From an uncultured Bacteroidales bacterium (lineage in GTDB: Bacteria > Bacteroidota > Bacteroidia > Bacteroidales > P3): DNA of 64,000 nucleotides. A program made the position numbers and the translations under genes. The notes beneath the pieces are model-generated. The model did no database searches. It worked only from the letters and a program-made list of their open reading frames with translations, and had not been told where the DNA came from. Shown here in pieces: positions 6,206-50,517 of the stretch; position 1 is the stretch's first letter; each line of letters opens with the position of its first letter. The stretch covers positions 37,400-101,399 of the forward strand of contig CAMVMX010000010.1 in NCBI GenBank assembly GCA_947168665.1, in the 5' to 3' direction.

Positions 6206-6216
6206 GGCGGGAGGGG

Positions 6217-6804
6217 TCAGGCTTTGGAGCGGAGGCGGCGGGCGATGAGGTCGTCGGCGGGTGTGGGGACGAAAGAGGCCAGCATCTGCAGGAGGATGTC
6301 GGGCTGCGAGTCGACAATGAGATAGCGGGCGTCGGTGAGGTTGTAGAAGCCTTCGCCTTGCATGTGGCGGAGCATTTCCATCTGGGGGTCGAAGAAATTG
6401 AGGGTGTTGAGCAGTCCCATGGGTTTGCTGCACTGCCCCAGCTGGTTGGCGACAAGGACTTCGAAGATCTCGTCGATGGTGCCTATGCCGCCCGGGAGGG
6501 CGATAAAGGCGTCGCTGTGAGCGATGAGGTATTCTTTGCGCTCGGCGATGGAGGCGACACGCACCAGCTCGCTGACGGGCTGAGAGAGGATAATCTCCTC
6601 GGAGAAGAATGAGGGGATGACCCCCACGACGTGGCCGCCGTGCTGGAGGGCGGCACCGCTGACGGTACCCATAAGGCCGAGATTGCTGCCGCCATAGAGG
6701 AGTGTGTGGCCCCCTTGGGCAATGAGCTGGCCGAGCAGTTCGGCGGCTTGGATGTATTGGATGTTGCTGGGAAGTGTGGCTCCACAGAAGACGGATATGT
6801 TCAT
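6217..6804 (-). CDS. LOG family protein (TIGR00730, cytokinin riboside 5'-monophosphate phosphoribohydrolase-like)
   Basis: Starts MNISVFCGA and contains the PGGIGTIDEIFE motif. Confidence 0.85.
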   Translation of the reverse strand: MNISVFCGATLPSNIQYIQAAELLGQLIAQGGHTLLYGGSNLGLMGTVSGAALQHGGHVVGVIPSFFSEEIILSQPVSELVRVASIAERKEYLIAHSDAFIALPGGIGTIDEIFEVLVANQLGQCSKPMGLLNTLNFFDPQMEMLRHMQGEGFYNLTDARYLIVDSQPDILLQMLASFVPTPADDLIARRLRSKA

Positions 6805-24236: not shown

Positions 24237-24290
24237 TGTGGTTTATTTCTTATCAGTTACATACTCACAAGACGGCCTCCGGTTTTGGGG

Positions 24291-24704: not shown

Positions 24705-24724
24705 AATCTATTCTGTTTGATTGT

Positions 24725-27186: not shown

Positions 27187-27211
27187 AACATTCTTGCATT
27201 TGGATATGTTA

Positions 27212-28924: not shown

Positions 28925-28936
28925 ACTCTTTTCGAT

Positions 28937-29227
28937 TTAGAAGCCTACTGGTTCATGCTTCAACCTAAAGGCTTCAGGGTCAAAAGTCATTTGGTAAATT
29001 TTGATGTCGGGGTTGCACTTGCGGACAGCCTCGATTATTTTTTCTCTGCTTTCTGCGTTCTTTTTCTCTTTGAGGTGCACTCCCGAGTAGACAAAATGAG
29101 TGTATGCTGGGTGGCAGTCGAACGGATCGTTCAACTGTGTGGCATTAGTGAACATCAGAGTGCCATAATAAAGCATCATCAGTCCCCCGTCTGCATCAAG
29201 GTATTTGTATAACCTGTCGTTGCACAT
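28937..29227 (-). CDS. DUF2971-like protein, apparently truncated (96 aa)
   Basis: LYKYLDADGGLMMLYYGTLMFTNATQLNDPFDC matches the DUF2971 N-terminal signature. The ORF stops 12 nt before hsdM. Recalled full-length family members are much longer. Confidence 0.45.
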   Translation of the reverse strand: MCNDRLYKYLDADGGLMMLYYGTLMFTNATQLNDPFDCHPAYTHFVYSGVHLKEKKNAESREKIIEAVRKCNPDIKIYQMTFDPEAFRLKHEPVGF

Positions 29228-29244
29228 GTCTTTTTTTCAAACTG

Positions 29245-29252
29245 CAAAGATA
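29245..29252 (-). promoter_or_regulatory. Candidate -7 promoter box (TATCTTTG on minus strand) for the DUF2971-hsdM operon
   Basis: The plus strand reads caaagata. The box is ~20 nt upstream of the ATG at 29227. Confidence 0.4.
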
Positions 29253-29510
29253 CTCTTTTTTTCTTGAATGGCAAAATGTATTTTATAATGGATAGTAAAA
29301 ATGAGATGTGTATTCGGGTGACGGATACGGGCTGAGGTTTGGAGGCTCTGCTCGAGGAGGTGGTCAGTGAAGGGAAGTCCGCTGGCGGGAGCACGCAATA
29401 TCCTTATTCAATGACATCCATCTTTCTTTCCGTTATTGATGGAATAGGTGCTTCCGTGCAATTTGTCGTCCCATCGTGTCAATTTCACTGTCCGCGAGGA
29501 TGGCGGCTGG

Positions 29511-29990
29511 TCATACGTATTGACGTATCAAGTCGGTAATCTTCTTGGCCAAGGCGGCTCGCTCGGAATCGGATAGGCACAGGCCGAACCTGCAACCCGT
29601 ATTGGAATAGACCAGGTACAACGTTTCGGGTCGCCATCCACTATAATCGTCATAGTATTCTACATCCTTTATTGCCGACAATGGTATCTCCATTTTCCGC
29701 TTCAGGATGCACCTGCGACATTCGATGACAAACATTTCGTCTCTCACAGCAATGGTTTCCACAGCACAATGCCACCTCATATCCCTGTCGATGGACATGA
29801 TTGACAATGGAATCATAACCACTGTAAGTGCAGGGATAATAATCAAGCCTACGCCTTCGCCGTTGTTCAGTTCAACCAATGTTAGAACAATCATGCACAA
29901 AGTCGCAAAGGCAGCCACTCTTCCACGGAATGTGGCAAAACCGTCGTATCTCTGGGTTTCGTGGGCTTTGTTTATGGACAAGATTTCCAT
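29511..29990 (-). CDS. Hypothetical membrane protein (2 TM + cytosolic beta-rich domain); last cassette of the array
   Basis: 159 aa with hydrophobic segments FATLCMIVLTLVEL and GLIIIPALTVVMIPLSI. Preceded by leader repeat R1. Confidence 0.55.
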   Translation of the reverse strand: MEILSINKAHETQRYDGFATFRGRVAAFATLCMIVLTLVELNNGEGVGLIIIPALTVVMIPLSIMSIDRDMRWHCAVETIAVRDEMFVIECRRCILKRKMEIPLSAIKDVEYYDDYSGWRPETLYLVYSNTGCRFGLCLSDSERAALAKKITDLIRQYV

Positions 29991-30097
29991 CTTTATTGTC
30001 TGTGCTTATTGTTTCTATTCATTTTATTGTTTCATTCGTGCATTTTCACCTCGCACAGGTGCGGGGTGTCGTTTTTGTGCGGGAGCGACGCCCCGAT
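29991..30097 (-). repeat. Cassette leader repeat R1
   Basis: The plus strand reads ..tgtctgtgcttattgtttctattcattttattgtttcattcgtgcattttcacctcgcacaggtgcggggtgtcgtttttgtgcgggagcgacgccccg. Dyad box cgcacaggtgcg at 30052-30063. Confidence 0.85.
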
Positions 30098-30172
30098 GCG
30101 GCGGATGTTTTGGGGTATGTTGTATCGGATTTGCAATCTGATACTGTTTTCAGGATTTTAAATCCGCAAACA

Positions 30173-30452
30173 TTAGAACAGGTCTGAATGTGAGCCTGTA
30201 CGGTATAGAGAAACAATGCGAACGGTCTCTTTTCGGCTGTAAATGGGAAGCCAGTCTGGATTAATGTGACACTCTCGATACCCACGGTAGTTTCCTGTCA
30301 ACACGTGGTCGCGGTATTTATCGGGCAGCGGTGCCTTCCTGCAGCATATCGGTCACCGTTTTGAGCTGGGCAAGGTCAAGGCCGCGCCGTTTGGCAAGTT
30401 TCAGGTCTTTAACAAACTTGCCACCATATTCCAATTTGTAGCGTATGCCCAT
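30173..30452 (-). pseudogene. yafQ: YafQ/RelE-family toxin, frameshifted
   Basis: Manual translation from ATG 30452: MGIRYKLEYGGKFVKDLKLAKRRGLDLAQLKTVTDMLQEGTAAR then TAA. In a shifted reading frame it continues LPDKYRDHVLTGNYRGYRECHINPDWLPIYSRKETVRIVSLYRTGSHSDLF, a canonical YafQ C-terminus, ending at 30173. Confidence 0.75.
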
Positions 30453-30454
30453 AA

Positions 30455-30688
30455 CTACAAGGTGGCAATTAGGTCATCAATACTTTCGGCGCATTGCACT
30501 CCGTGTCCAGCCTCGACATCGCGAATAGCCTGCATTGTTTCTTCGTTGAGAAAGCATCCGCATTCAGGGTCGAAAAGTGCGTCGGCAGGTTTGGCTTCTG
30601 TAAGCGTCCAGCCCATTCTTTTGGCCAATTTCTGCATAAATGGGAGATCTGCCTTTGGTAACCCGACATTATAAGTGGCTGTGTTCAT
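30455..30688 (-). CDS. DinJ-like antitoxin
   Basis: MNTATYNVGLPKADLPFMQKLAKRMGW...NEETMQAIRDVEAGHGVQCAESIDDLIATL. The C-terminus parallels the E. coli DinJ toxin-binding tail. The stop is 2 nt before the toxin ATG. Confidence 0.6.
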   Translation of the reverse strand: MNTATYNVGLPKADLPFMQKLAKRMGWTLTEAKPADALFDPECGCFLNEETMQAIRDVEAGHGVQCAESIDDLIATL

Positions 30689-30864
30689 AACTTTTAATAT
30701 TAAATGGTTATATTTCAACAACGAAATAATAACTTTTTTATTGTGTCTGTCAATCGGAATATTTCTAATATTATTCAGCGTCGGATCGCAGATCCGCCGC
30801 AACGGGAGCCGTTTCCCATATCGGTTGGGGCTGGCGCAGGGGGGCGACAGCCGTTCTCAAACAG

Positions 30865-31338
30865 CTATTGATTGTGCCTGACAAGAACGGTGATGTCTGT
30901 TGCGCTTACTAACGTGCTTTGCTTTTTTTCAATCAGAGCCAAAGTGTCCGTTGTCAACTTTGTAATTTGGATTTCCCCTTTCTTGTCGCCGTCGGAAAGC
31001 ACAATTGTGCCATTGGCAACATGGTACTGGAAAGACTGGAGAATCGTGTCCATCTCGACAGAGAAGTTTCCATCGGAGAAATCCATTGTCCCGTTAACGA
31101 ATGTGTAAATGCACTTGCCGTCATTTGTGAACTCTATGCCAAGAAGAGGGCTGCATTTGGAGTCGCAAGTGTCGTAAATAACGCCATCGCTTGCTTTCCA
31201 ATCGTTAATCTCATAGACAAAATCCCACTGCCCTACGAGCAGTGTTTCATCAATGTTTTCGTTTCCAGTCCCGCTCTTGCAGGCGGTCATCATTCCGATG
31301 GCGCCCACCATAGCGCCGAGCAAAAATATCTTCTTCAT
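30865..31338 (-). CDS. Lipoprotein, lipocalin-like (tentative)
   Basis: MKKIFLLGAMVGAIGMMTAC lipobox. LVGQWDFVYE... resembles lipocalin-like domain proteins. Preceded by leader R2. Confidence 0.55.
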   Translation of the reverse strand: MKKIFLLGAMVGAIGMMTACKSGTGNENIDETLLVGQWDFVYEINDWKASDGVIYDTCDSKCSPLLGIEFTNDGKCIYTFVNGTMDFSDGNFSVEMDTILQSFQYHVANGTIVLSDGDKKGEIQITKLTTDTLALIEKKQSTLVSATDITVLVRHNQ

Positions 31339-31455
31339 CGTCTGTCTGTGTTTATTGTTTTACTTCATTTTGTTGTTTCATACGGTCATTTTCACCGCGC
31401 ACGGGTGCGGGGTGGCGTTTCAGGGTTGCCGTCCGTAAGGATGGCAGCCGTTGGT
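31339..31455 (-). repeat. Cassette leader repeat R2
   Basis: ctgtctgtgtttattgtttt...ttgttgtttcatacggtcattttcaccgcgcacgggtgcggggtggcg...aaggatggcagccgttgg. Dyad box at 31398-31409. Confidence 0.85.
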
Positions 31456-31932
31456 TCATTTCTTCGACTTTCGAAATTGCTTGTGGTACTTCCTCAGTTG
31501 CCGTTTCAGAAAGAGATGTGTTGGTTCCATAACAGCAAAACGATACTCCATACCTTTGGTCGGTTCCACAATTATGTAGTAGTAATAATCCACACGAAAA
31601 GATATTTCCGAGAATTGTTTGATATTTGACCACTCAATGTCAATTGTACCGAGGTCCTCCCATTCGTAGTCTTTTGTCCGTCTTTGCACATGTTCTATAC
31701 GCAAAAAATCGGGACAGACGACAATGGTGTTTCTTTTTCTCACGATGGCATAGATGATGTGCAGAAGCAAACTGACGGCTGCAACTCCAAGCAATATATA
31801 TCCCCATATGTCGAGCGAGCATGCAAACCAAACCCACGCCCATAACGCTAACATAACGACCAGAAATATTATGCCGACCCACACCCATGCGGTGTCCTTG
31901 TAAACCTTGACGGCATTCTCGGGTATATTCAT
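31456..31932 (-). CDS. Hypothetical membrane protein (2 TM + C-terminal domain)
   Basis: Start taken at MNIPENAV (ATG 31932). The longer ORF start at 31962 lies inside the leader repeat. Confidence 0.55.
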   Translation of the reverse strand: MNIPENAVKVYKDTAWVWVGIIFLVVMLALWAWVWFACSLDIWGYILLGVAAVSLLLHIIYAIVRKRNTIVVCPDFLRIEHVQRRTKDYEWEDLGTIDIEWSNIKQFSEISFRVDYYYYIIVEPTKGMEYRFAVMEPTHLFLKRQLRKYHKQFRKSKK

Positions 31933-31988
31933 TATCTGTCTGTGTTTATTGTTTCCGTTCATTCTGTTGTTTCATTTTTGTTGACGCT
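31933..31988 (-). repeat. Cassette leader repeat R3 (short form)
   Basis: tatctgtctgtgtttattgtttccgttcattctgttgtttcattttt. It has the proximal modules only. Confidence 0.8.
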
Positions 31989-32213
31989 TTAATCAATCAG
32001 TACACAAGCAATGACACCGATGACAAAAGCGGAGATGTTGATGATTAGAATCCATATCTGAAACTTATCCTTTTCTTTTCTACACATTCTCCAGTATCTC
32101 ACAATATCAAATGGGGAGTACCACAGTTTGTCGTAGTAATGGTTCACTGTATAACTGATGTACCACCCTGAGACAAGCCATATCACGCCGAAAACTATAG
32201 CAATTGTTTCCAT
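31989..32213 (-). CDS. Small 2-TM membrane protein, hypothetical
   Basis: 74 aa: METIAIVFGVIWLVSGWYISY...ISAFVIGVIACVLID. Preceded by leader R4. Confidence 0.5.
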   Translation of the reverse strand: METIAIVFGVIWLVSGWYISYTVNHYYDKLWYSPFDIVRYWRMCRKEKDKFQIWILIINISAFVIGVIACVLID

Positions 32214-32289
32214 TATGTCTGTGTTTATTGTTTCCTTTCATTCGGCAGCGACGAGCCGCAGAAGACTGCTATGTGCATATTTACTTGTT
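32214..32289 (-). repeat. Cassette leader repeat R4 (subtype B)
   Basis: tgtctgtgtttattgtttcctttcattcggcagcgacgagccgcagaagactgctatgtgcat. Confidence 0.85.
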
Positions 32290-32706
32290 TCAATCCTTGT
32301 GATAGCCTGCCCAGCTGCTGTTGGACGGGTTGCCTTTCTCGTAGGCAATCTCTATTGGGTCGTGAGGGGCGAACTTCTCCCAGACCGACTTCTTCAATTG
32401 TGTTTTGCCGTGATACAAGCTGTCGTCAATGTAGAAATAATACGACACATAGTAATCACACTTGCGGCCACCGCTAACAGTATATGTTTTCTCAACGCGT
32501 GCAGTAGTCTTGACTGAGTCCTGCTCAATCCTATGGAATTGTATTCGTGCCTGAACGATAGCCACCAACACAACCAGCCCTGAAATCCATACAGGGGACC
32601 AGCGCAGGATGCTGTGTCCAATCTTCTTACGTTTGGCTTTGGCCTGCAGATTTTTATTACTGCCCTTTGTCGGGTAGTTGGGACGGCGGTTGATGTTGTG
32701 GGACAT
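32290..32706 (-). CDS. DUF3592-like membrane-anchored protein
   Basis: Start taken at MSHNINRRPNY (ATG 32706). One TM (WISGLVVLVAIV) followed by ...TTARVEKTYTVSGGRKCDYYVSYYFYIDDSLYHGKT..., typical of DUF3592. Confidence 0.55.
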   Translation of the reverse strand: MSHNINRRPNYPTKGSNKNLQAKAKRKKIGHSILRWSPVWISGLVVLVAIVQARIQFHRIEQDSVKTTARVEKTYTVSGGRKCDYYVSYYFYIDDSLYHGKTQLKKSVWEKFAPHDPIEIAYEKGNPSNSSWAGYHKD

Positions 32707-32795
32707 AGTGTTTATTGTTTTTGTTTCTTCGGCAGCGACGAGCCGCAGAAGACTGCTATGTGCATAGTGGTTATTTCGGTTATGTGATTGGTCTA
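32707..32795 (-). repeat. Cassette leader repeat R5 (subtype B)
   Basis: gtgtttattgtttttgtttcttcggcagcgacgagccgcagaagactgctatgtgcat. The distal module is near-identical to that of R4. Confidence 0.85.
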
Positions 32796-33236
32796 TTATC
32801 CCCAGAAGGGCAATGTCATTGAGTGAGGGAGATACACTATCTTGAACGACACGGCCATCAGAACGGCGCTGGCGACGAAGTAGGCTATCAGTAGCCAGCG
32901 GTTCCTCTTGCGCGCTTTCGGGGGCTCTTCTTTCCACCGGGCCTCGCAGTCGTCGTACAGCTTCTCTTTGTTAAGGATGAAGACGTTGAAAACGGCGATT
33001 GCCACCACGATAATCCACAGCAGGTTGGCCGACAGCTGGTGGCCGAACAGCAGAACGGGCAGGATCAGCAGCGTGTTGAGGTTGGAGATTTGAAGCAGCG
33101 ATACGATGCCCATCGAGGATATCAGATGGGTCGGATCGACCTTCTGCGTCAGCGGGTCATAGGACAAGGAGTAATGCACGGGATGGTCCCAGAACCGCGT
33201 TATCCTGTAGAAACAGTATTTGTAAAACTTTAGCAT
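32796..33236 (-). CDS. Hypothetical multi-pass membrane protein
   Basis: 146 aa with about 3 hydrophobic helices. Preceded by leader R6. Confidence 0.5.
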   Translation of the reverse strand: MLKFYKYCFYRITRFWDHPVHYSLSYDPLTQKVDPTHLISSMGIVSLLQISNLNTLLILPVLLFGHQLSANLLWIIVVAIAVFNVFILNKEKLYDDCEARWKEEPPKARKRNRWLLIAYFVASAVLMAVSFKIVYLPHSMTLPFWG

Positions 33237-33335
33237 CTTTTATCTGTTGTTTCATTTCTGCATTTTCACTGCGCTCGGGTGCGACGCCCCGCAGAAGACT
33301 GAGATGTTCATTGTGTCTGTGTTTTTGTGTCGTTG
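33237..33335 (-). repeat. Cassette leader repeat R6 (subtype A)
   Basis: ctgttgtttcatttctgcattttcactgcgctcgggtgcgacgccccgcagaagactgagatgttcattgtgtctgtgttt. Confidence 0.85.
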
Positions 33336-33665
33336 TCAGAACACGCGGTCGCCGTTCTTCACCGGGTGGGTGGGGCGCAGGAGGACGACACCCTGGGCGG
33401 AGTCGGTGCCGAGAATGCGCACCTCGCTCTTGACGGAGCCGATGTGCATCGGCTGCAGGTTGACGCAGCACACCACCTGCGTGCCGACGAGGTCGTCGGG
33501 AGTGTAGAGGGCGGTGATTTGCGCCGACGATTTCTTCAGCCCGATTTCGGGGCCGAAGTCGATGGTGACCGCATAGGCGGGATGGCGTGCTTTCTTGTTT
33601 TCGGCGACGGCCACCACGGTGCCCACCCGCACTTCCACTTTGTCAAAGTCTGTTACTTCTATCAT
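33336..33665 (-). CDS. tRNA-binding domain protein (CsaA/YgjH-like OB fold)
   Basis: FDKVEVRVGTVVAVAENKKARHPAYAVTIDFGPEIGLKKSSAQIT...LVGTQVVCCVNLQPMHIGSVKSEVRILG is the classic stand-alone tRNA_bind domain. Visibly GC-richer than its neighbours. Confidence 0.75.
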   Translation of the reverse strand: MIEVTDFDKVEVRVGTVVAVAENKKARHPAYAVTIDFGPEIGLKKSSAQITALYTPDDLVGTQVVCCVNLQPMHIGSVKSEVRILGTDSAQGVVLLRPTHPVKNGDRVF

Positions 33666-33848
33666 ATTGTTTCTTTTAAATCTGTTGTTTCATTTCTGCA
33701 TTTTCACCGCGCACGGGTGCGACGCCCCGCAGAAGACTGAGATGTGCATTGTGATGTTTCTGTTTTCTTTGCCGTCACCTCCGCTATGGTCGGTGGCCAT
33801 AGCACGCAAGGATGGCAGCCGATTGTCTTTTGTAGAGTGTATGTAATG
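33666..33848 (-). repeat. Cassette leader repeat R7 (subtype A, long form)
   Basis: ctgttgtttcatttctgcattttcaccgcgcacgggtgcgacgccccgcagaagactgagatgtgcattgtg...aaggatggcagccgattg. Confidence 0.85.
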
Positions 33849-34364
33849 TTATTTCTTTTGCGATGGGTAAATGGGTTGGCCATTCCAACTTGCGGTAAAT
33901 ATTCCGTATAGTTCATCGTCAAAGTCAATAACATAATTCTCGTCAACGAACTGCAACGTCCCCTTGTCATCTACATATAATGTAGACCAACCTGTACGGC
34001 TATCTTCACACGCCCACCAGTCATGAAATCCTTTGGGCAGGTCTTCGAGTGCCTTATCAACGACCAAACCTTTTGGATTCACGTTGACGACCATATCGAA
34101 TATTGGATCAGCCATATCCAGTCGTGAAATACATTCGCTAAACACTTCATCCCATTTGCAGCCTACCCGAGACAAAAGAAACCTATATAATGGAGCGTAG
34201 TCATTGAAATGCCTTCTTTGCCTTCGCTTGATGGGCAGTTGCGATGGCAGCACATCTTGTTTCTTATGGCGCTCGTTTCTGTACCTATCCGTCTCTTGGC
34301 TGTAAAACCGAAATCCATTATGCGTAATTTTGTTTACTTTGCGATAAAGCGGCTTCTTCTCCAT
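33849..34364 (-). CDS. Hypothetical cytoplasmic protein
   Basis: Start taken at MEKKPLYRKV (ATG 34364). The longer start (34394) reads through the leader repeat. No family recognised. Confidence 0.5.
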   Translation of the reverse strand: MEKKPLYRKVNKITHNGFRFYSQETDRYRNERHKKQDVLPSQLPIKRRQRRHFNDYAPLYRFLLSRVGCKWDEVFSECISRLDMADPIFDMVVNVNPKGLVVDKALEDLPKGFHDWWACEDSRTGWSTLYVDDKGTLQFVDENYVIDFDDELYGIFTASWNGQPIYPSQKK

Positions 34365-34569
34365 TTTCTGTCTGTGTTTATTGTTTCTATTCAATCTGTT
34401 GTTTCATTTCTGCATTTTCACCGCGCTCATGAGCGGGGTATTGTTTTTGTGCGAAAGTCGGCCGCGCTCATGAGCGGAGGACACTTTCCGAGTGAAAATC
34501 GGCCGCGCTCGTGAGCGGGGTGCGTTTTCCGGCCTCGTCCGTGGTTGCGCTCATGAGCGCGGTGTGTTT
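34365..34569 (-). repeat. Cassette leader repeat R8 plus a 4 x ~41-bp tandem array of palindromic boxes (34421-34569)
   Basis: The proximal modules match R3/R7. They are followed by boxes cgctcatgagcg (34424-34435, 34465-34476), cgctcgtgagcg (34506-34517) and gcgctcatgagcgc (34547-34560), spaced 41, 41 and 42 nt apart. Confidence 0.9.
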
Positions 34570-35091
34570 TCACGCCTCCGTCGGCTCTTCGCCCGGTGTC
34601 GCGGGCTCAGCGTCGGGCTCGGGCGTCTTCTTGTCGCGGTGCGAGGGTGCCATCGCGTGCTTGCGGAAGTATTCGAGGTCTTCGCTGACGAGGGCGACGA
34701 GTTTCTGCGCCTCGGCGCGGTCGGGGTTGAGGAGGGCGTAGGCGTTGGTGAGGCGCACGAGGGTGAGGTAGGCGCGGTCGGTGGCCTCGCGGGCGGCCTT
34801 GAGCTCGCCCATGATTTGCGCCGAGCGCTCGTCGTTGCGTTCGGTGAGGAGCTGGCGCACGCGGTCGTCGTCGGCCTTGATGGGGTCGGTGAGCTCGCTG
34901 TCGCGGTAGCGCTTGAAGGCTTCGTCCTCGGCCCTGAAGGCGGTGTCGAACTCGTCCTTGCCCTTGCGCCAGAGCTCGTGGTCGACGGGCAGCTCGGCGG
35001 TGCGCTTGCCGAAGGTGGTCATGTACTCGTAGTGCGGCGCGTTGGCCGCGCGGCCGACGGTGACGTCGGGAATCTGTGCTGTGAGTTCCAT
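34570..35091 (-). CDS. Hypothetical protein, strikingly GC-rich gene
   Basis: 173 aa, acidic and helical (…DEFDTAFRAEDEAFKRYRDSELTDPIKADDDRVRQLL…). Its codon usage is unlike all neighbouring island genes. No family recognised. Confidence 0.5.
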   Translation of the reverse strand: MELTAQIPDVTVGRAANAPHYEYMTTFGKRTAELPVDHELWRKGKDEFDTAFRAEDEAFKRYRDSELTDPIKADDDRVRQLLTERNDERSAQIMGELKAAREATDRAYLTLVRLTNAYALLNPDRAEAQKLVALVSEDLEYFRKHAMAPSHRDKKTPEPDAEPATPGEEPTEA

Positions 35092-35117
35092 AATGTTTTT
35101 GTTTTATAGGTGAATTA

Positions 35118-35663
35118 TTATTGTTCCGAATATTCTTGTCCGTACAGGAAATCCATAAGGTCAACAAACTCAAACTGGCAACCTGGTTTGACGATGAGCA
35201 CCCCACTTGTACAACTGTCCTGGGGGATGAAAGCAATGTCGCCTTGACAAAATATCTTTTTGTCCGCCGAGGTCTTGTGATATTTAACACCCATCTTTTC
35301 CAGTTTTTGGCCGCACTCATAATAGTAATACCCCCAGTCGTCCGCCGCAACATAGAAGCCTTCCAGTGCCGCGGAGTCGTTTTCCAGGTCGTGCAGCATT
35401 TTTTCCCAACATTCATTGGAACGGAATATCAAAACATATTCTGTTTGCTTCCCGTCCACATACACATCCGCCGTCTCTCGATATTGAGATACGGTGTCGC
35501 CGACGGAAACAACACCATTGAAAGAGGTATCTCCTGCGGTCTCGTTTGCCGTGCCGCCCTTGCATCCGGCCATCATCGCCACGGCGCACAGCACCGCGAG
35601 TGTGAAGAAAGTCCAGTGGACTTTAGATAGCGTAGCGGAGAATAAATTAAATACTTTCTTCAT
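35118..35663 (-). CDS. Hypothetical lipoprotein (shared signal peptide family)
   Basis: ...FFTLAVLCAVAMMAGCKGG lipobox. The mature domain is unrecognised. Confidence 0.55.
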   Translation of the reverse strand: MKKVFNLFSATLSKVHWTFFTLAVLCAVAMMAGCKGGTANETAGDTSFNGVVSVGDTVSQYRETADVYVDGKQTEYVLIFRSNECWEKMLHDLENDSAALEGFYVAADDWGYYYYECGQKLEKMGVKYHKTSADKKIFCQGDIAFIPQDSCTSGVLIVKPGCQFEFVDLMDFLYGQEYSEQ

Positions 35664-35675
35664 GATGTTTTTGTT

Positions 35676-36188
35676 TTATTGGTTAGACTCTTCTTTCTTT
35701 TCTTTGTTTATTCTTTCAAATGCTTTCTCGGCTGCTTGGGAGCCTCTGAAAACGTAAAGGTCATCGGAAAACTCGGCCCATGTGTAGGTGTGCTCATCCG
35801 CCATAATGTCTATCGACATTAATTCAATCATCGACGCAAGCACCTGTTCCCGTCTTTCGGGGGAAAGTTTGTCGAGGCCTTCCAGTTCCATATTCTCCAA
35901 GAACCTGATGTACTGCATGCTTTTGTATAGGCTGTAGCCCATATCTTCGGAGTACCCGCCGTCCGCTTTGTCGATGTTCTGGAAGAGGAAAGACCATTCT
36001 TCTGGAAGGAGTGTGTCGCCCCCGCGCATTTTTTCCGCCAGCCGCTCCCATTCGTCAACGTTGAACGTGTCGGTCGCGGTCTCGGTTGCCGTTGACTCAT
36101 CAAGTTTGGCAGGCGTACCACCGCCCTTGCATCCGGCCATCATCGCCACGGCGCACAGTATCGCGAGGGTTAAAAATACTTTCTTCAT
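35676..36188 (-). CDS. Hypothetical lipoprotein (shared signal peptide family)
   Basis: Start taken at MKKVFLTLAILCAVAMMAGCKGG (ATG 36188). Helical mature domain. Confidence 0.55.
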   Translation of the reverse strand: MKKVFLTLAILCAVAMMAGCKGGGTPAKLDESTATETATDTFNVDEWERLAEKMRGGDTLLPEEWSFLFQNIDKADGGYSEDMGYSLYKSMQYIRFLENMELEGLDKLSPERREQVLASMIELMSIDIMADEHTYTWAEFSDDLYVFRGSQAAEKAFERINKEKKEESNQ

Positions 36189-36211
36189 TTTTAGGAATTG
36201 TTTGTGGGACA

Positions 36212-36799
36212 TTATTTGATTTGTATTGATTCATCGAATGCAGGTTCGGTGAGGGTTACGGTCTTGTATGTGTTGTCCGGAGTGTCGTAGACGCGCCAGT
36301 CGCCAATGCCGAGGAAGCCGTCGTGTATAAACCCTTCGTATCCGGTGTAATATCCGTCGCCTTCCTTGTTGATGGTGGTGCCGTCATCGGTGTACTCCTT
36401 GTAGTGCGCCCTGTATTCGAACCTGTTCAGGCCAATCACAGTGTCCGTTTTTTCGATGCCGGTGAAATGGCAGTATAGTTTCCCCTTGATATACACCTTT
36501 AGTTCTCCACATTCGTTGCCGTTGCAGTAGTTAACCTCCGAAATCATCCTATCGCTCTCTTCATACAGCCACAGGCCGTCTTTTTTGCCATTGGCATTGT
36601 ACCGGTTTATTTTTCCCGCCAAGGAATCGTTTGCGGTCTCGGTTGCCGTTGCCTCATCAAGTTCGGCAGGCATACCACGCTCGGCAAGCTCGCCGGGCAT
36701 ACCAGCCTCATCGAGTTCGGCAGGCGTGCCACCGCCCTTGCATCCGGCCATCATCGCGAGGGCGACCACCGCCGTGCATATCATCTTTGTCTTCTTCAC
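36212..36799 (-). CDS. Lipoprotein with MORN-variant/YwqK-like repeats (tentative)
   Basis: GTG start. (M)KKTKMICTAVVALAMMAGCKGG lipobox. Internal duplication GTPAELDEAGMPGELAERGMPAELDEA. NANGKKDGLWLYEE...EVNYCNGNECGELKVY resembles YwqK-type antitoxin/immunity repeats. Confidence 0.5.
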   Translation of the reverse strand: MKKTKMICTAVVALAMMAGCKGGGTPAELDEAGMPGELAERGMPAELDEATATETANDSLAGKINRYNANGKKDGLWLYEESDRMISEVNYCNGNECGELKVYIKGKLYCHFTGIEKTDTVIGLNRFEYRAHYKEYTDDGTTINKEGDGYYTGYEGFIHDGFLGIGDWRVYDTPDNTYKTVTLTEPAFDESIQIK

Positions 36800-36870
36800 T
36801 GTCTGTCTGTGTGTCTTGGTGTTTCCGTGTAAACTGTTGTTTTGTTGCTTGCATCATTGTTTTACCAAGT
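36800..36870 (-). repeat. Degenerate ninth copy of the cassette leader (R9)
   Basis: ctgtctgtctgtgtgtcttggtgtttccgtgtaaactgttgttttgttgcttgcat aligns loosely with the proximal and middle leader modules. Confidence 0.5.
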
Positions 36871-36944
36871 GGCAAGGTTGGCTACCGGCCCGATAGTGTC
36901 CAATAGGGCGTATCCAGCCTTACATGCACCATAGAATGGTGTTT

Positions 36945-36997
36945 GTTTCTTCATACTTTCTATTTCGTTTCTTCATACTTTCTATTTTGTTTCTCAT
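36945..36997. repeat. 22-bp direct tandem repeat (2.4 copies)
   Basis: gtttcttcatactttctatttc / gtttcttcatactttctatttt / gtttctcat. Confidence 0.85.
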
Positions 36998-37135
36998 ATT
37001 AGAGCCAACTAGTGTATAAAAAGTGACAAAGCAGAAACAAAATAACGGCACCAGACTTGCCCGTGGAAGCCGGGGGAGGGGTGTGGCTTTATGGCGTCGT
37101 GCTGCGGGAGGCGAGGCGTTGTCGCCGGACCCTGT

Positions 37136-37654
37136 TCAAAGTTGCTTCATTGGAGAGGACATAGGGATTCGTTTTAGGGTCAGTGTGGTCACGATGGTAT
37201 CGTGTTCGGATGGGTCGACATTGGTAAGCGCCATGCTTTCTTGCGAAAGCATGTCTATCCTGAGCCATGGATTCCATTGCCCGGAATCCTCCCTGAGCAT
37301 TATGCTGTCATTTCGCAGTGTGTAGCCGTATTGATATGTATTCGTGTCGCCGTGGTGCCACGCGGTTTCATAATAATAGCCGTCATCGTCAAAACGCCAT
37401 ATAAGATTAGGCACAACAGTATCGTTCCGTTCTTTTCCGGAGGTGATTGTTCTCCTGTCCAACCGAACCACTTTCCACTCGCCGAGCAACAGCAGTTGCC
37501 AGTCGTGCTCTAATCCGCCTTTGCTATGCTGGGTGTCGGTGCTCTCAATTCCGATAATGCTGTCGGCTGCGTCTTCGTTTGCCGCCCCACTCTTGCATCC
37601 GGCCATCATCGCCACGGCACACAGCACCGTGAGGGTTAAAAATGCTTTCTTCAT
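37136..37654 (-). CDS. Lipoprotein, lipocalin-like (tentative; shared signal peptide family)
   Basis: MKKAFLTLTVLCAVAMMAGCKSG lipobox, followed by LLLGEWKVVRLD.... Confidence 0.55.
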   Translation of the reverse strand: MKKAFLTLTVLCAVAMMAGCKSGAANEDAADSIIGIESTDTQHSKGGLEHDWQLLLLGEWKVVRLDRRTITSGKERNDTVVPNLIWRFDDDGYYYETAWHHGDTNTYQYGYTLRNDSIMLREDSGQWNPWLRIDMLSQESMALTNVDPSEHDTIVTTLTLKRIPMSSPMKQL

Positions 37655-37773
37655 ATACCTTTTATGTTATATGTTATGCATCAATCTTTCGGCGGGGTTT
37701 TGTTGCGGCGCGGCGGCAAGCCGCCGCGAAGAACAGGAATCCACGTGCAAGTTTGTCTTCCATTTCTCGTGCT

Positions 37774-38697
37774 CTACCAACGAAGCCAGTTGCCCCGTTT
37801 CATCAGTTTGTCAATTAGTGTTGCCTTGGTCACGGGCTTCTGTATCTCGAAGATGCCGGAGGGGTTGATGAAGCCGTGCGTGTCGCCGATACGGGCATAG
37901 GCAAGACCTTCGGAGAAGGAGTGCAGATTGTCGAAACGGGCTTCGATGATGAGGTTGCCCGCCTTGTCGATGGCACCGCTTTTGTTGCCAATCTCGACGA
38001 TGGAGCGTCCTTCAATGAGGGTGTCGACATGGTCGAATCTCTCGCCGAGCAGCACCACGTCGTGACCGTCGTGGTCGATGAAGCGCCATTTGCCCTCTTT
38101 CTTCGCTGGCGCCAACCCTTCGGAGAAGGACTCGGTCTCGTCGAATTCGGGTGCTATGGCGAATTTGCCTTCCTTGTTGACGAACCCGCACTTGTCCCCG
38201 TCGTTAACGACGACAGGCATAAGGTCTTCCTCGAAGGTGTAGGCAAAGCTGAACTTTGGCTTTATTACCAGTTTGCCGGTCCTGTCGATGGCACCGTATC
38301 GCCAGTCGCCATCTCCAACGATGAATTCAGCGGCCGCCAACCCGCAGGAGAAGTTCTCCACGTCGGTACAGTCCTCGCCGAGTTCGGCGAGGACTCTGCC
38401 GTTCCTGTCTATGATGTGGAAGCCGTCGCCGATAGAGCATGCTGCCACTCCCTCGGTGAAGGCAAGGGCGAAGTCGTACTGCGGCTTGATCACCATCTTG
38501 CCGTAGCGGTCGATGAAACCGTACTTATTGTTGACCTCGACGGCCGCCAGCCCCTCAGAGAAGCCGGATGCTGCGGTGTACTGCGGTGCGATGGCAACAT
38601 GCCCTTGCCGGTCGATGTATCCCCATTTGTTCTTTATCAACACCGCCGCAAGCCCGTCAGAGAAGAGCCAGGGGGATCCTGCCAAACTGTTCTTCAT
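37774..38697 (-). CDS. WG-repeat (KWG) containing protein
   Basis: There are 7-8 repeats of the type KWGYIDRQGHVAIAPQY / KYGFIDRYGKMVIKPQY / KCGFVNKEGKFAIAPEF. No signal peptide. Confidence 0.8.
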   Translation of the reverse strand: MKNSLAGSPWLFSDGLAAVLIKNKWGYIDRQGHVAIAPQYTAASGFSEGLAAVEVNNKYGFIDRYGKMVIKPQYDFALAFTEGVAACSIGDGFHIIDRNGRVLAELGEDCTDVENFSCGLAAAEFIVGDGDWRYGAIDRTGKLVIKPKFSFAYTFEEDLMPVVVNDGDKCGFVNKEGKFAIAPEFDETESFSEGLAPAKKEGKWRFIDHDGHDVVLLGERFDHVDTLIEGRSIVEIGNKSGAIDKAGNLIIEARFDNLHSFSEGLAYARIGDTHGFINPSGIFEIQKPVTKATLIDKLMKRGNWLRW

Positions 38698-38700
38698 AGG

Positions 38701-38982
38701 CTATTCTTTTTGCCAGCGTTTGAGCTGGGGGAAGTACTGGCGGAGCTGCTCGCGGTATTCATCGGCGGTGAGGTGCTGGCCGGTATTCTGGTTAAACTGG
38801 TCGACAAACTGGACGCAGAAGTCTATCATCTGCTCCATGGTGCAGTCCTGCGTGAAGTGGCCGTCGGCAAAGCAGTACTTGCAGTAGTCGGGGTTCTCGC
38901 TCACGACCTCGTCGCTCAGCGGCATGCCGCAACTCTGGCAGAAGCGCATTTGTGCGGGGTCGGGTGTCTTGTTTTCGTCCAT
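38701..38982 (-). CDS. Zinc-ribbon domain protein
   Basis: MRFCQSCGMPL...YCKYCF CxxC pairs. The stop is 3 nt before the WG-repeat gene start. Confidence 0.6.
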   Translation of the reverse strand: MDENKTPDPAQMRFCQSCGMPLSDEVVSENPDYCKYCFADGHFTQDCTMEQMIDFCVQFVDQFNQNTGQHLTADEYREQLRQYFPQLKRWQKE

Positions 38983-39007
38983 ATTTGATTGTTTTTATTT
39001 GTTTGAT

Positions 39008-39036
39008 AATGTCCCGCGCCGAAGGCGCGGGACATT
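39008..39036 (-). terminator. Strong hairpin after dgkA (13-bp stem, GAA loop)
   Basis: aatgtcccgcgcc gaa ggcgcgggacatt. No obvious U-run. Lies 26 nt upstream of the zinc-ribbon gene ATG. Confidence 0.45.
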
Positions 39037-39045
39037 GAATGGGTG

Positions 39046-39429
39046 TCAGTTGATGATCAACGAAAGGATTTTCGGCAAGAAGATGATCAACCCTACGATG
39101 GCAGCAGCTATGGCGGTTAGGAGTACCGCCGCTGCGCCAAGGTCTTTGATATCCCGCTTGCGGTCGTCCCGTTCGGCCTTGACAAAATCGGCGGTTCGCT
39201 CAAGCGACGAGTTTATAGCCTCCGCACTGAGGACCATCCCGATTACTATCGTCACCGCTATCCATTCATAGGCCGAGATGCGGAAGGCGAATCCTGCAGT
39301 TACGGCGCATAATGCCGCAAAGGCGTGAATCCGTGAGTTGTGCTCTTCGCGAAACAGGACACGCAGCCCCGCAAAGGCATAGCGGAAGCTCTTTATCCGT
39401 TTCTTTATAGAAAACCTTTCGTTGTTCAT
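39046..39429 (-). CDS. dgkA: Diacylglycerol kinase family (prokaryotic DAGK/undecaprenol kinase-like) membrane protein
   Basis: 127 aa. RIKSFRYAFAGLRVLFREEHNSRIH...SAEAINSSLERTADF...KDLGAAAVLL are typical DgkA motifs. Confidence 0.8.
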   Translation of the reverse strand: MNNERFSIKKRIKSFRYAFAGLRVLFREEHNSRIHAFAALCAVTAGFAFRISAYEWIAVTIVIGMVLSAEAINSSLERTADFVKAERDDRKRDIKDLGAAAVLLTAIAAAIVGLIIFLPKILSLIIN

Positions 39430-39435
39430 GTGGCG

Positions 39436-40389
39436 TTACTTCCGTTTCAGCACCGCGTGCACCTTCTCGACGATGTCGGCGGCGCGGAGGTGGTAGTTGG
39501 TGAGCATCTCGTCGGGGGTGCCGCTCTCGCCGAACTTGTCGTCCACGGCCACGTACTCCATCGGCGTGGGGCAGTGCAGGGCGAGGGTCTGGGCCACGCT
39601 ATCGCCGAGGCCGCCGTTGAAGAGGTGCTCCTCGCAGGTCACCACGGCGCGGGTCTTCTTGGCGCTGGCCACGATGGCCTCCACGTCGAGCGGCTTGATG
39701 GTGTGGATGTTGATGACTTCGGCGCTGATGCCTTCCTTCTCCAGGGCTTCGGCGGCCTGCAGGGCTTCCCACACAAGGTGGCCGCAGGCGAAGAGGGTCA
39801 CGTCCTTGCCCTCGCTCAGCAGCTGGGCTTTGCCGATCTCGAACTTCTCATTCTCCGGCAGGAAGCAGGGCATCTTCGAGCGGCCGAGGCGCAGGTAGAC
39901 GGGGCCGACGTGCTCGGCGGCGGCCAGCGTGGCGGCCTTGGCCTGGTTGAAGTCGGCGGGCACCAGCACGGTCATATTGGGCAGGGCCTTCATCAGGGCG
40001 ATGTCCTCCATCGTCTGGTGCGTGGCGCCGTCCTCGCCGAGCGAGATGCCGGCGTGCGAGCCGCAGATCTTCACGTTCTTGTTGCTGTAGGCCACGACCT
40101 GGCGGATCTGGTCGTAGACGCGGCCGGTGACGAACTCGGCGAAGCCGCCCAGGAAGGGCACCTTGCCGCAGAGGCTCAGACCGGCGGCGATGCCGACCAT
40201 ATTGGCCTCGGCGATGCCGCACTGGATGAAGCGCTCGGGGAACTCCTTGGCGAAGCCGTCCATCTTGACGCTGCCTTTCACGTCGGCGCTCAGCGCCACG
40301 ACATTCTCATTGCGCTTGCCAGCTTCCACAAGGCCTTCGCCCATACCGGCGCGCAGTTCTTTCATTGATTGTTTTTCGTAGTGGGTCAT
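39436..40389 (-). CDS. Transketolase, C-terminal (pyrimidine-binding + C-terminal domain) subunit
   Basis: FPERFIQCGIAEANMVGIAAGLS...GEDGATHQTMEDIALMKALPNMTVLVPAD...INIHTIKPLD. Confidence 0.9.
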   Translation of the reverse strand: MTHYEKQSMKELRAGMGEGLVEAGKRNENVVALSADVKGSVKMDGFAKEFPERFIQCGIAEANMVGIAAGLSLCGKVPFLGGFAEFVTGRVYDQIRQVVAYSNKNVKICGSHAGISLGEDGATHQTMEDIALMKALPNMTVLVPADFNQAKAATLAAAEHVGPVYLRLGRSKMPCFLPENEKFEIGKAQLLSEGKDVTLFACGHLVWEALQAAEALEKEGISAEVINIHTIKPLDVEAIVASAKKTRAVVTCEEHLFNGGLGDSVAQTLALHCPTPMEYVAVDDKFGESGTPDEMLTNYHLRAADIVEKVHAVLKRK

Positions 40390-50476: not shown

Positions 50477-50517
50477 GTTGAGTATGAATTTGGAATGTAT
50501 TGAAAAGTGTGTATTTG

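Follow-up and report, generated by a model that had tools for sequence, protein, structure and literature searches.

The locus is a chromosomal array of promoter-less gene cassettes. In this uncultured rumen Bacteroidales genome, small, unrelated and co-oriented genes are parted by a common junction sequence, within a stretch of 64 kb (hereafter the window). The same junction was found in about 45 species-level rumen and gut Bacteroidales MAGs, among which cassettes are held in common and their order differs, and 73 metagenome contigs hold it as well (111 core-like matches, with at most three mismatches). As to how cassettes move, we prefer host homologous or short-homology recombination between junction modules, with no dedicated linked recombinase, and give this reading an even chance; a dedicated enzyme acting in trans is possible but comes second.

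Position of the array and its repeats

In related genomes the array belongs to a co-oriented gene string, transketolase - Zn_ribbon_2 - array - LOG - 249-aa gene. In the window genome the last two genes (5456..6804) lie 22 kb away from the array. The main landmarks are:

29440..38700, minus strand: whole variable array, between the Zn_ribbon_2 gene and the promoter of a type I R-M operon
29440-34569, minus strand: leader-repeat-bearing part of the array
37774..40389, minus strand: upstream frame
39436-40389, minus strand: transketolase C-terminal subunit
39046-39429, minus strand: diacylglycerol kinase
38701-38982, minus strand: Zn_ribbon_2
37774-38697, minus strand: WG-repeat gene, itself cassette-like
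6217-6804, minus strand: intact LOG-family gene, downstream frame in related genomes
5456-6205, minus strand: conserved 249-aa gene after LOG, downstream frame in related genomes

The original prediction placed eight copies of a modular leader directly upstream of minus-strand starts at 29990, 31338, 31932, 32213, 32706, 33236, 33665 and 34364, and all eight were found there. Module counts against shuffled sequences showed that the repeats are real and far above chance, with five matches versus 0.01 expected for the proximal module, three versus 0 for the middle module and two versus 0 for the distal module. A profile made from the leader copies gave E values of 1e-7 to 1e-21 for six of them and of 0.026 for R4. 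The repeats are confined to the array: neither the other ~54 kb of the window nor the housekeeping flanks at related loci contain the leader element. The modular make-up and the distinct R4/R5 subtype were as first described. The proposed ninth copy (36798-36843, gene start at 36799) is plausible by eye, but its E value of 0.37 is not significant alone.

A composite junction

The modules first described are parts of one composite junction. Four parts make it up: either a GC hairpin, which may be missing, or the 5' stub of a LOG-family gene (the "distal module"); then a palindrome of 12 nt whose changes are compensatory; then an invariant block of ~30 nt, GCGCGGTGAAAATGCAGAAATGAAACAAC; and last an unstructured A-rich leader in fixed register to the ATG. 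Linkage analysis tied the hairpin, the LOG stub and the palindrome to the upstream cassette, and the remaining middle module together with the proximal module to the downstream ORF; the switch lies between about -5 and +25 relative to the invariant block. Each ORF is thus followed by a 3' module (variable GC hairpin or LOG 5' stub, then the palindrome), and the invariant block sits between this module and the leader of the next cassette. The leader had been placed wholly 5' of each ORF. This holds for its right part; its left part follows the upstream gene, and a degenerate junction also lies beyond the last gene, at 29440-29510. Therefore, the element is only partly 5' of the ORFs.

The junctions of the window are as follows:

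J8 (R8), 34365..34569, minus strand: four tandem ~41-nt palindrome units (34421-34435, 34462-34476, 34503-34517, 34548-34562), invariant core, middle and proximal leader, ATG at 34364
J7 (R7), 33666..33848, minus strand: tail hairpin, LOG 5' UTR, LOG stub (33719-33749), palindrome CGCACCCGTGCG, core (33697-33712), short leader, ATG at 33665
J6 (R6), 33237..33335, minus strand: LOG 5' UTR, LOG stub (33281-33311), hybrid palindrome, core (33259-33274), truncated leader, ATG at 33236
J5 (R5), 32707..32795, minus strand: type b LOG stub (32735-32765) fused straight to the proximal leader, without core
J4 (R4), 32214..32289, minus strand: type b LOG stub (32248-32278) fused to the proximal leader, without core
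J3 (R3), 31933..31988, minus strand: right half of the middle module (ATGAAACAACAG) and full proximal leader, without palindrome or core
J2 (R2), 31339..31455, minus strand: tail hairpin CGGCTGCCATCCTTACGGACGGCA, CCCTGAAACGCCAC, palindrome, core (31385-31400), middle and proximal leader
J1 (R1), 29991..30172, minus strand: partial LOG stub (30076-30094), palindrome CGCACCTGTGCG, core (30039-30054), middle and proximal leader
J0, 29440..29510, minus strand: degenerate terminal junction, tail-like hairpin and core-like AGTGAAATTG, no ORF behind (E = 0.033)
Ninth copy, 36798..36860, minus strand: weak degenerate leader upstream of the lipoprotein gene starting at 36799 (E = 0.37)

The core is missing from four of the nine inter-ORF junctions (J3, J4, J5 and the weak ninth copy), or from five of ten when J0 is included. 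Pairing of the palindrome is kept in 89.9% of cells, and 29 cells carry double changes, against 10.5 +/- 2.3 in shuffles, none of 500 reaching the observed value. Palindrome units occur in two to five tandem copies of ~41 nt, and two optional ORF-less inserts, of 48 nt and ~70 nt, recur at one leader position. The distal module is the 5' UTR of a LOG-family (TIGR00730) gene together with that gene's first ~11 codons (M-N/H-I-S/A-V-F-C-G-A/S-S), and intact LOG genes with 5' ends identical to it exist in other genomes. The LOG stubs measure 31-115 nt and are of two allele types, both foreign to the window genome. Stubs of a DUF6261 gene vary likewise, from 23 to 107 aa.

The Bacteroidetes promoter consensus TAnnTTTG was found in none of the leaders. 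Each cassette has a leader of ~60-70 nt; among 50 cassette families, position -3 is A in 94% and position -13 in 88%, and the last ~55 nt before each ATG are predicted to be unpaired. Adenines at -3 and -13/-14 fit determinants reported for Bacteroidetes translation (PMC6847099). The junction may thus be the expression module of each cassette, the hairpin protecting or delimiting the upstream message and the A-rich leader acting as a Shine-Dalgarno-free translation initiation region. We propose that the junction is kept uniform because it has this role and because recombination homogenises it.

Cassette genes and their turnover

29511..29990, minus strand: last cassette, 159 aa, 2-TM, weak DUF2244 match
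30173..30688, minus strand: toxin-antitoxin cassette, intact antitoxin (30455-30688) and inactivated YafQ toxin (30173-30452)
30865..31338, minus strand: 157 aa, lipoprotein
31456..31932, minus strand: 158 aa, 2-TM, weak DUF2244 match
31989..32213, minus strand: 74 aa, 2-TM
32290..32706, minus strand: 138 aa, one TM segment, weak DUF3592 match
32796..33236, minus strand: 146 aa, membrane protein
33336..33665, minus strand: 109 aa, tRNA_bind OB-fold
33849..34364, minus strand: 171 aa, without family match
34570..37654, minus strand: upstream cassettes with a short A-rich leader only, each recurring in other arrays
34570-35091, minus strand: DUF6261 gene, internally deleted
35118-35663, 35676-36212, 36212-36799 and 37136-37654, minus strand: four lipoprotein genes with near-identical signal-peptide DNA

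The gene labels given at first fared unevenly. The tRNA-binding label was firm (E = 5e-12); the YafQ label was right, but the gene is a pseudogene that has lost 2 nt present in the intact copy of locus L055; DUF3592 remained weak (E = 0.052), and the window proteins gave no support to the lipocalin-like and DinJ labels. The uneven base composition was borne out, with 38% to 68% G+C.

Turnover of cassettes, expected of a capture system, was evident. Every window cassette recurs elsewhere at 93-98% nucleotide identity with different neighbours. The 109-aa tRNA_bind protein is identical in 69 blocks of the collection and was seen in at least five gene neighbourhoods among the contigs read. In some genomes, transketolase DNA is 97.5-99.1% identical to that of the window and the arrays nevertheless differ, identity falling from this level in TK_C to 86-88% in the next gene. 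Filled and empty sites were seen in pairs of loci, and arrays occupy three or more unrelated chromosomal sites.

Several joints could be placed. The 74-aa and 138-aa cassettes, both without core, swap order in L062 relative to the window, with a crossover inside AAACAATAAACAC. A glyoxalase cassette has its own leader, whose joint with the shared leader falls at +17 or +45 of the latter, and the 146-aa membrane gene has two alternative leaders, other genomes joining a different one near the ATG. Breakpoints also lie inside the proximal module and the LOG stub, not only in the invariant block. One insertion, in L084 relative to L044, is clean and begins ...TATAAA|TGCAC, matching ...GAAAA|TGCA.

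Recombination mechanism and known systems

The absence of a recombinase from the 64 kb, noted at first, held as far as tested, by Pfam on 40 window ORFs, a regular expression for tyrosine-recombinase box II, which does match the genuine rAID recombinase, and tblastn with that recombinase and an IS91 Y2 transposase as queries. Precomputed Pfam annotation gave no recombinase in flanks of up to 10 kb at 21 loci (L001-L010, L090-L093 and L097-L103), and the vicinity of about 145 related loci yielded no recombinase gene either. The cassette-capture reading stands as an array with turnover and no linked recombinase; a dedicated system is less likely, as breakpoints extend beyond the block and stub lengths vary.

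Under host recombination, repeated junction modules would be the places where cassettes are gained, lost and reordered, probably once DNA has passed between related rumen strains, and the conserved flanking genes would let whole arrays be swapped too. Imprecise joins would leave the LOG and DUF6261 stubs behind, and the variable lengths of these stubs point to homology-driven and illegitimate recombination. Two known situations are alike. In CDI/Rhs orphan toxin/immunity arrays, a conserved-gene stub before each orphan unit provides a homology patch with no dedicated recombinase; there the toxin gene supplies the stub and a toxin is restored by recombination, whereas here a housekeeping LOG gene supplies it, with its 5' end, and unrelated small proteins are encoded by the cassettes. 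In minimal mobile elements, for example in Neisseria, DNA uptake is followed by homologous recombination that swaps the cassettes lying between conserved flanking genes, without an element-encoded recombinase, but there is one alternative cassette per slot and no internal repeated junction or shared leader.

Several observations weigh against host recombination. An invariant, non-coding 30-nt block after a covarying hairpin, in about 45 species, has the classic look of a site for a site-specific or HUH-type enzyme, and expression needs alone do not obviously account for it: the block lies 40-70 nt upstream of the ATG and holds two upstream AUGs, something that initiation regions in Bacteroidetes tend to lack (PMC6847099). 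At 13-31 nt, the homology tracts do not exceed the minimum that RecA-dependent exchange usually needs. Homology alone does not explain the presence of arrays at unrelated chromosomal sites, and homologous recombination leaves unexplained how a common leader, in a common register, first came to unrelated ORFs. Metagenome assemblers can also mis-join at repeats, yet the arrangements recur in independent assemblies (L003/L007/L008 and L002/L004/L060).

An integron analogue, served by an enzyme encoded elsewhere in the genome, is a tentative alternative. The folded palindrome would be the recognition site of a tyrosine or serine recombinase, or of an HUH nickase/transposase, which would cut the neighbouring core at about GGTGAAAA^TGCA; cassettes between two direct copies of the site would be excised and re-inserted at another copy, and the LOG 5' end would be a secondary target. 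This would suit the covarying palindrome directly 5' of the core, a hairpin able to reach into the first core bases, the linkage switch at the core, the clean L084 insertion, the ORF-less inserts at a fixed leader position, the co-orientation of all cassettes and the several chromosomal sites. Sedentary integrons, moreover, include toxin-antitoxin cassettes, as these arrays do, and attC arrays without integrase (CALINs) are a known integron state. Both resemble the window array in their promoter-less cassettes, mostly of unknown function, their structured repeat with pairing kept and sequence variable, beside a conserved core, repeats uniform within a lineage (cf. Vibrio VCRs) and persistence of arrays without integrase. 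Classical integrons are rare in this taxon, however, and the window array differs from them in that intI, attI and Pc were not recognised, the R''-L''/L'-R' layout and GTTRRRY core are missing, and a long conserved leader stands at the 5' end of each cassette. The enzyme itself had no candidate in the regions searched; coreless junctions are frequent in the window, yet two such cassettes change order between genomes; and the many stub lengths and truncated leaders contrast with the precise boundaries of integron cassettes.

It is improbable that the repeat is a MITE/REP/BIME-like mobile element colonising the spacers of an older variable island whose genes are not cassettes. The tandem palindrome units, the optional inserts and the modular make-up would fit such an element, but it is confined to the array, always gene-oriented and in fixed register with the ATG; leader variants move with their own ORF and 3' modules with theirs, and entire ORF-plus-leader units shift between genomes. 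An artefact or trivial origin, by chimeric assembly across repeats or by tandem duplication and divergence of one gene, is less probable still. All data are MAGs or metagenome contigs, and repeats of 60-100 nt can mislead assemblers; however, independent assemblies repeat identical arrangements, stub lengths and inserts are reproducible across loci, and the ORFs are unlike in fold class, length and G+C.

The likeness to rAID-1, gut Bacteroidales clusters for recombinase-associated acquired interbacterial defence (Ross et al. 2019, bioRxiv 10.1101/471110; PMC12247911), is one of logic only. Both comprise short (about 100-300 codon), co-oriented genes in the same order of bacteria, with a repeat in every spacer, uneven G+C and variation from strain to strain; a further likeness is that the mechanism of rAID-1 biogenesis is still unknown (PMC12247911). 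Unlike the window array, rAID-1 has an XerD-family tyrosine recombinase directly upstream, an attC-like inverted repeat as spacer 3' of each ORF, mostly SUKH/Imm immunity genes and mobile-element backgrounds, whereas the window junction, about 60-70 nt of which is a 5' leader, is unrelated and the array is placed between housekeeping genes. At the genuine rAID-1 loci L094-L096, a tyrosine recombinase is present and the attC-like repeat is unrelated to this junction; the array was therefore rejected as rAID-1 or a classical integron. That it is an ordinary case of either, with its recombinase outside the window, is highly improbable: the rAID-1 recombinase abuts the first cassette and here both array ends, in view, are ordinary genes, the rAID-1 repeat (TAAC-AAGCGGATnAATC...GATTATCCGCCGAACATTA) has nothing in common with the junction, tblastn found no rAID recombinase homologue in any locus, the cassettes span 38-68% G+C rather than lying below 41%, and the dominant SUKH and Imm families are nearly missing.

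The immunity content of the cassettes is thin: the immunity functions first suggested came down to a Pfam match (Imm11) in one of 50 cassette families, and to none among those of the window. The array is probably a stock, differing between strains, of genes for small envelope proteins, of an orphan antitoxin and of some genes of the immunity or resistance type.

The repeat and its parts

The original observation, that eight minus-strand genes are each preceded directly by a copy of the same repeat, is confirmed for all eight (8/8). The three modules into which the repeat had been divided gave 5, 3 and 2 matches (≤3 mismatches), versus 0.01, 0 and 0 in shuffles of the window. With a profile built from the copies, six were recovered (E = 1e-7 to 1e-21) together with a seventh, R4 (E = 0.026). 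The ninth copy proposed at 36799 was matched by this profile too, at a weak score (E = 0.37), and a degenerate junction was found with it after the last gene (29440–29510, E = 0.033). Read in gene direction, the junction has the following parts:

(a) optional: a GC-rich hairpin of variable sequence then CCCTGCAACGCCAC; alternatively a 5′ stub of a LOG gene (family TIGR00730), or one to four extra palindrome units of ~41 nt
(b) a 12-nt palindrome, in three main versions, CGCAC-nn-GTGCG, CGCTC-nn-GAGCG and CGCAT-AT-ATGCG, each self-complementary
(c) a nearly invariant block, the core, GCGCGGTGAAAATGCAGAAATGAAACAAC
(d) a leader, AGATTGAAnAGAAACAATAAACACAGACAGaca-ATG, A-rich (56% A) and predicted unpaired

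A motif scan of the whole 64-kb window found palindrome and core nowhere outside 29.4–34.6 kb. Among 67 distinct copies of the palindrome, 89.9% of cells were paired, and 29 compensatory double changes were counted versus 10.5 +/− 2.3 in shuffles, a number as high being reached in 0 of 500. Whether the hairpin acts as RNA or DNA was approached through the asymmetry of G-T wobbles in the palindrome, a test dropped as uninformative because the counts were equal on both strands. No Rfam 15 covariance model matched at E ≤ 1 on either strand of 28000–40000.

The leader keeps a fixed register to the ATG: of 50 cassette families, 94% have A at −3 and 88% have A at −13. In Bacteroidetes, initiation without a Shine-Dalgarno sequence is reported to depend on adenines at −3 and −12/−13 and on an unstructured start region (PMC6847099). 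A promoter function of the leader was rejected: the TAnnTTTG element was in none of the junctions examined, and the TAnnTTTG/TTTG consensus on neither strand of any junction. The sole full consensus (TAnnTTTG plus a −33 TTTG) in 28.9–39.1 kb is at ~29252 and serves a type I restriction-modification (R-M) operon lying directly downstream of the array (window 20652–29260):

27212–28924, hsdM
26002–27186, DUF1016/YhcG nuclease gene
24725–26005, hsdS
20652–24236, hsdR

Many arrays are headed by two to five tandem palindrome units of ~41 nt, as at 34421–34562 in the window and, in the related loci L020 and L057, right after the stop of the Zn_ribbon_2 gene. Units other than the terminal one have, in place of the core TGAAAATG, its approximate complement CGATTTTCG. 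Two optional structured inserts occur in several species at the same exact leader position, directly after ATGAAACA(A)C. One is 48 nt long (L003, 9935–9982; L006, L012, L014, L046) and the other ~70 nt (L048, L016, L046, L014, L062); either might be an ORF-less cassette or a miniature insertion. A 22-nt sequence, TTYGTTTCTTCATACTTTCTAT, is duplicated in tandem (two copies, 36942–36985) within the long spacer ahead of the lipoprotein gene at 36799. Four lipoprotein cassettes share near-identical signal-peptide DNA (64–84%; 35534–35609, 36101–36176, 37567–37642 and 31251–31326) followed by unrelated mature parts, and their common 5′ region reaches into the ORF.

Ownership of the junction and gene stubs within it

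The conserved element had been described as a 5′ leader belonging to each ORF. This was not borne out by a linkage analysis, in which 77 junction copies were grouped by upstream and by downstream gene. Copies with the same upstream gene agree in all that lies to the left of about −5 (palindrome, stub, hairpin), and copies with the same downstream gene in all that lies to the right of about +12 to +25. The end of the glyoxalase cassette, TAA followed by CGCGGTGAAAATG, recurs in six species before at least four different downstream genes, and the tRNA_bind gene is always found with its own shortened proximal leader. The element is therefore a two-sided junction, in which the 3′ end of one cassette meets the 5′ leader of its downstream neighbour. 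A crossover at one single bond was not retained: the switch can be placed only somewhere between about −5 and +25, since the block is invariant.

The distal module of the repeat translates to M-(N/H)-I-(S/A)-V-F-C-G-(A/S)-S and is the 5′ UTR of a LOG-family gene together with roughly its first 11 codons. At the downstream end of related arrays stands an intact LOG gene, the first 31 nt of which are the same as the stub. The window's own LOG gene (6217–6804), 22 kb from the array, is of a third allele type. Stubs of type a in the window match the LOG genes of L002, L084 and L037, and those of type b the LOG genes of L003, L006, L012 and L057; it follows that the stubs came in with cassettes of other genomes. 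Site-specific insertion at LOG codon ~12, restoring the gene, is weakened by three observations: stub lengths vary from 31 to 115 nt, the palindromes at LOG-type junctions are hybrid and non-complementary, and a DUF6261 gene has left comparable stubs. These observations fit short-homology joins between LOG nt 24–38 and the palindrome region, which is similar; this resemblance explains why the join recurs there.

The DUF6261 gene (68% G+C) heads several arrays (window 34570–35091; L084, 4362–5141). It has an internal deletion in the window, and in other species stubs of 23–107 aa are fused to palindromes. As it is so often deleted down to stubs it is not essential, and it was rejected as an array-linked enzyme. 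In related genomes LOG is always followed by a gene for a 249-aa protein (window 5456–6205; 56–86% amino acid identity), which has no Pfam or NCBIfam match; by eye, its D...EVK motif and a cluster of Cys near the C-terminus give it a putative likeness to nucleases of the Cas4/RecB type.

Distribution, turnover and content of the cassettes

An exact-pattern scan of species-representative genomes gave 79 stretches, about 55 of which carry further modules. These ~55 belong to about 45 uncultured Bacteroidales MAGs from the gut of cattle, yak, goat, sheep and deer; matches in other phyla were isolated chance matches. The window, too, comes from an uncultured Bacteroidales MAG. Another 73 contigs, with 111 core-like matches (≤3 mismatches), came from a scan of metagenomes. 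Viral or phage carriage was rejected: the six pattern matches in IMG/VR arose by chance on contigs of low G+C, none of which has an array or more than scattered matches to single modules. Many genomes have the array between transketolase/Zn_ribbon_2 and LOG with the conserved 249-aa gene, and arrays are found at other sites too, for example adjoining groEL.

Every cassette of the window has copies of 93–98% nucleotide identity in other species, next to different neighbours, and the Zn_ribbon_2 gene beside the array is only 84–93% identical. The 109-aa tRNA_bind protein is identical in 69 blocks of the collection and has at least five gene neighbourhoods in the contigs read. There are pairs of loci told apart by the clean insertion of one or two cassettes. 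Contigs whose gene for the transketolase C-terminal subunit (TK_C) is 97.5–99.1% identical to that of the window carry entirely different arrays, and identity falls to 86–88% in the gene directly after TK_C on the same contigs. The same arrangements occur in independent assemblies, which argues against an assembly artefact. The two transketolase subunit genes of the window (N-terminal, 49628–50665; C-terminal, 39436–40389) themselves lie about 9 kb apart, with variable genes between them (VWA, esterase, RhuM/Fic, GyrI-like), sets of which differ among genomes with TK_C ≥97.5% nucleotide-identical. This gap forms a second hypervariable slot that lacks the leader repeat.

The cassettes recovered fall into about 50 families (median length 168 aa). 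Crude criteria class 37 of the families as lipoproteins, signal-anchored or membrane proteins, and only 14 have Pfam matches:

Imm11, Rce1-like, DUF3592, DUF2244, glyoxalase/bleomycin-resistance, cation efflux, arginase
alpha/beta-hydrolase, TonB_C, lipocalin, WG repeat, NADase_transloc, DUF5714, tRNA_bind

By Pfam, Imm11 is matched by one cassette family (1/50) and Rce1-like by another (1/50), and at E ≤ 0.01 no cassette of the window matches a family of the Imm or SUKH kind. A homologue search with the Imm11 cassette returned 12 close relatives only and no wider context. As first noted, base composition of the genes is uneven (38% to 68% G+C, versus 57–65% in flanking housekeeping genes). 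The functions originally assigned to the window proteins held in part: tRNA_bind is solid and the YafQ toxin real, if frameshifted, whereas DUF3592 is weak and lipocalin and DinJ are unsupported. Toxin-antitoxin modules are present, with the toxin decayed in the window and in L018. In the window module (30173–30688) YafQ has a 2-nt deletion relative to the intact copy of L055, and in L018 the same gene has lost 151 nt. The antitoxin is intact in the window, which therefore holds an orphan antitoxin inside the array.

Comparison with known systems, and mechanism

The cassette-capture interpretation survives in part: the array is genuine, widespread and integron-like; it is neither an integron nor a recombinase-associated immunity cluster (rAID-1). 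Three genuine rAID-1 loci (L094–L096) were fetched with a rAID protein sequence from a paper supplement. Each has a 372–376-aa tyrosine recombinase then SUKH/Imm genes, rAID-1 being defined by a co-oriented XerD-family recombinase gene immediately upstream; the genes upstream of the present array encode WG-repeat, Zn_ribbon_2, DAGK and transketolase proteins. Co-orientation and short genes are shared, whereas rAID-1 calls for at least two co-oriented short genes of <41% G+C and the genes here have 38–68%, mostly >43%. The rAID-1 spacers of L094 and L095 read ...TAACAAGCGGATnAATC...GATTATCCGCCGAACATTA... and contain no core or proximal-leader match and one chance match to the middle-module pattern. 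These spacers of ~80 nt, TAAC-AAGCGGATnAATC...GATTATCCGCCGAACATTA, are attC-like, with cassette-specific complementary ends (e.g. GCAACTAAC ... CATTAGTTGC) resembling the R″/R′ boxes. Membership in rAID-1 was rejected, its repeat and recombinase being unrelated to this array. In L094 (7087–8316) and L096 (7738–8967) a gene for an IS91-family Y2 transposase lies between the rAID recombinase and the first cassette. How rAID arrays arise in Bacteroidales is still open (PMC12247911).

An integron has intI, attI and Pc beside the array; no Phage_integrase match was found among the window ORFs tested or in the Pfam labels of the flanks. Its attC site, R″(RYYYAAC)-L″...L′-R′(GTTRRRY), lies 3′ of each ORF, whereas the junction, read by eye, has one 12-nt palindrome and an optional hairpin and no RYYYAAC/GTTRRRY pair. 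The functional analogy holds: cassettes are promoter-less (no TAnnTTTG in leaders), assort independently, and are bounded by a repeated structured site, as the palindrome covariation indicates. Their content is closer to that of chromosomal integrons, mostly unknown, than to SUKH/Imm-rich rAID-1 arrays. REP/BIME elements are palindromes dispersed genome-wide in extragenic DNA and accompanied by a RAYT transposase, in contrast to a palindrome and core confined to 29.4–34.6 kb of the window. The array thus lacks the defining features of rAID-1 and integrons and follows the same logic; no description of such a junction or array was found in the searchable literature.

No recombinase or transposase was found by Pfam above threshold among 40 window ORFs, nor any integrase, resolvase or transposase among precomputed Pfam labels in flanks of up to 10 kb of 21 related loci. 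A box II regular expression, which matches HLLRHSFA in the rAID enzyme as positive control, and tblastn with the genuine rAID recombinases of L094 and L095 gave nothing in the window and about 145 loci, and tblastn with the IS91 Y2 transposase nothing over about 145 loci. Serine recombinases, DDE and HUH enzymes were screened by Pfam on a subset only; Y1_Tnp had no match in the proteins so tested.

The anatomy of the junction is compatible with two mechanisms. Exchange driven by host recombination on the repeated modules has, in our estimate, an even chance of being the right one. Conservation of the junction would then reflect its role in expression, with the exchange itself keeping the copies uniform. 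Nearly half of the window junctions have no core, and two cassettes with such junctions are reordered in L062 with the crossover in the proximal module; these reordered cassettes, and leaders truncated at different points, count for host exchange. The LOG stubs (31–115 nt) and DUF6261 stubs (23–107 aa) show imprecise, microhomology-type joins and add to the case, as do the likeness of LOG nt 24–38 to the palindrome region and the sharp identity step at the transketolase boundary.

A dedicated enzyme acting in trans is less probable. Site-specific exchange would join at the single bond between GGTGAAAA and TGCA. In favour of an enzyme, the covarying hairpin abuts the invariant core where linkage switches, arrays occupy several chromosomal sites, and ORF-less inserts recur at one fixed point. 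A leader shared in the same register by unrelated ORFs is accounted for neither by such an enzyme nor by host recombination. Tentatively, the covarying hairpin and invariant core GCGCGGTGAAAATGCA might be where a new system for mobilising cassettes recombines, one related neither to integrons nor to rAID-1. The enzyme of such a system, perhaps an HUH nickase or a recombinase of a kind not yet recognised, would have its gene at a distance from the arrays and act on several of them in each genome, and every cassette would bring along a translation leader that needs no Shine-Dalgarno sequence.

Much of the storage and exchange of accessory genes among bacteria runs through cassette arrays, of which, to our knowledge, only integrons are understood mechanistically. 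In about 45 rumen/gut Bacteroidales species the same logic occurs with a different junction and without a linked recombinase: either host recombination and a conserved expression-and-homology module run integron-like shuffling, or an unknown enzyme is at work. The family offers a catalogue of roughly 50 strain-variable families of small envelope proteins, most without a function assigned by Pfam, and may provide a natural, portable Shine-Dalgarno-free leader for expression in Bacteroidota.
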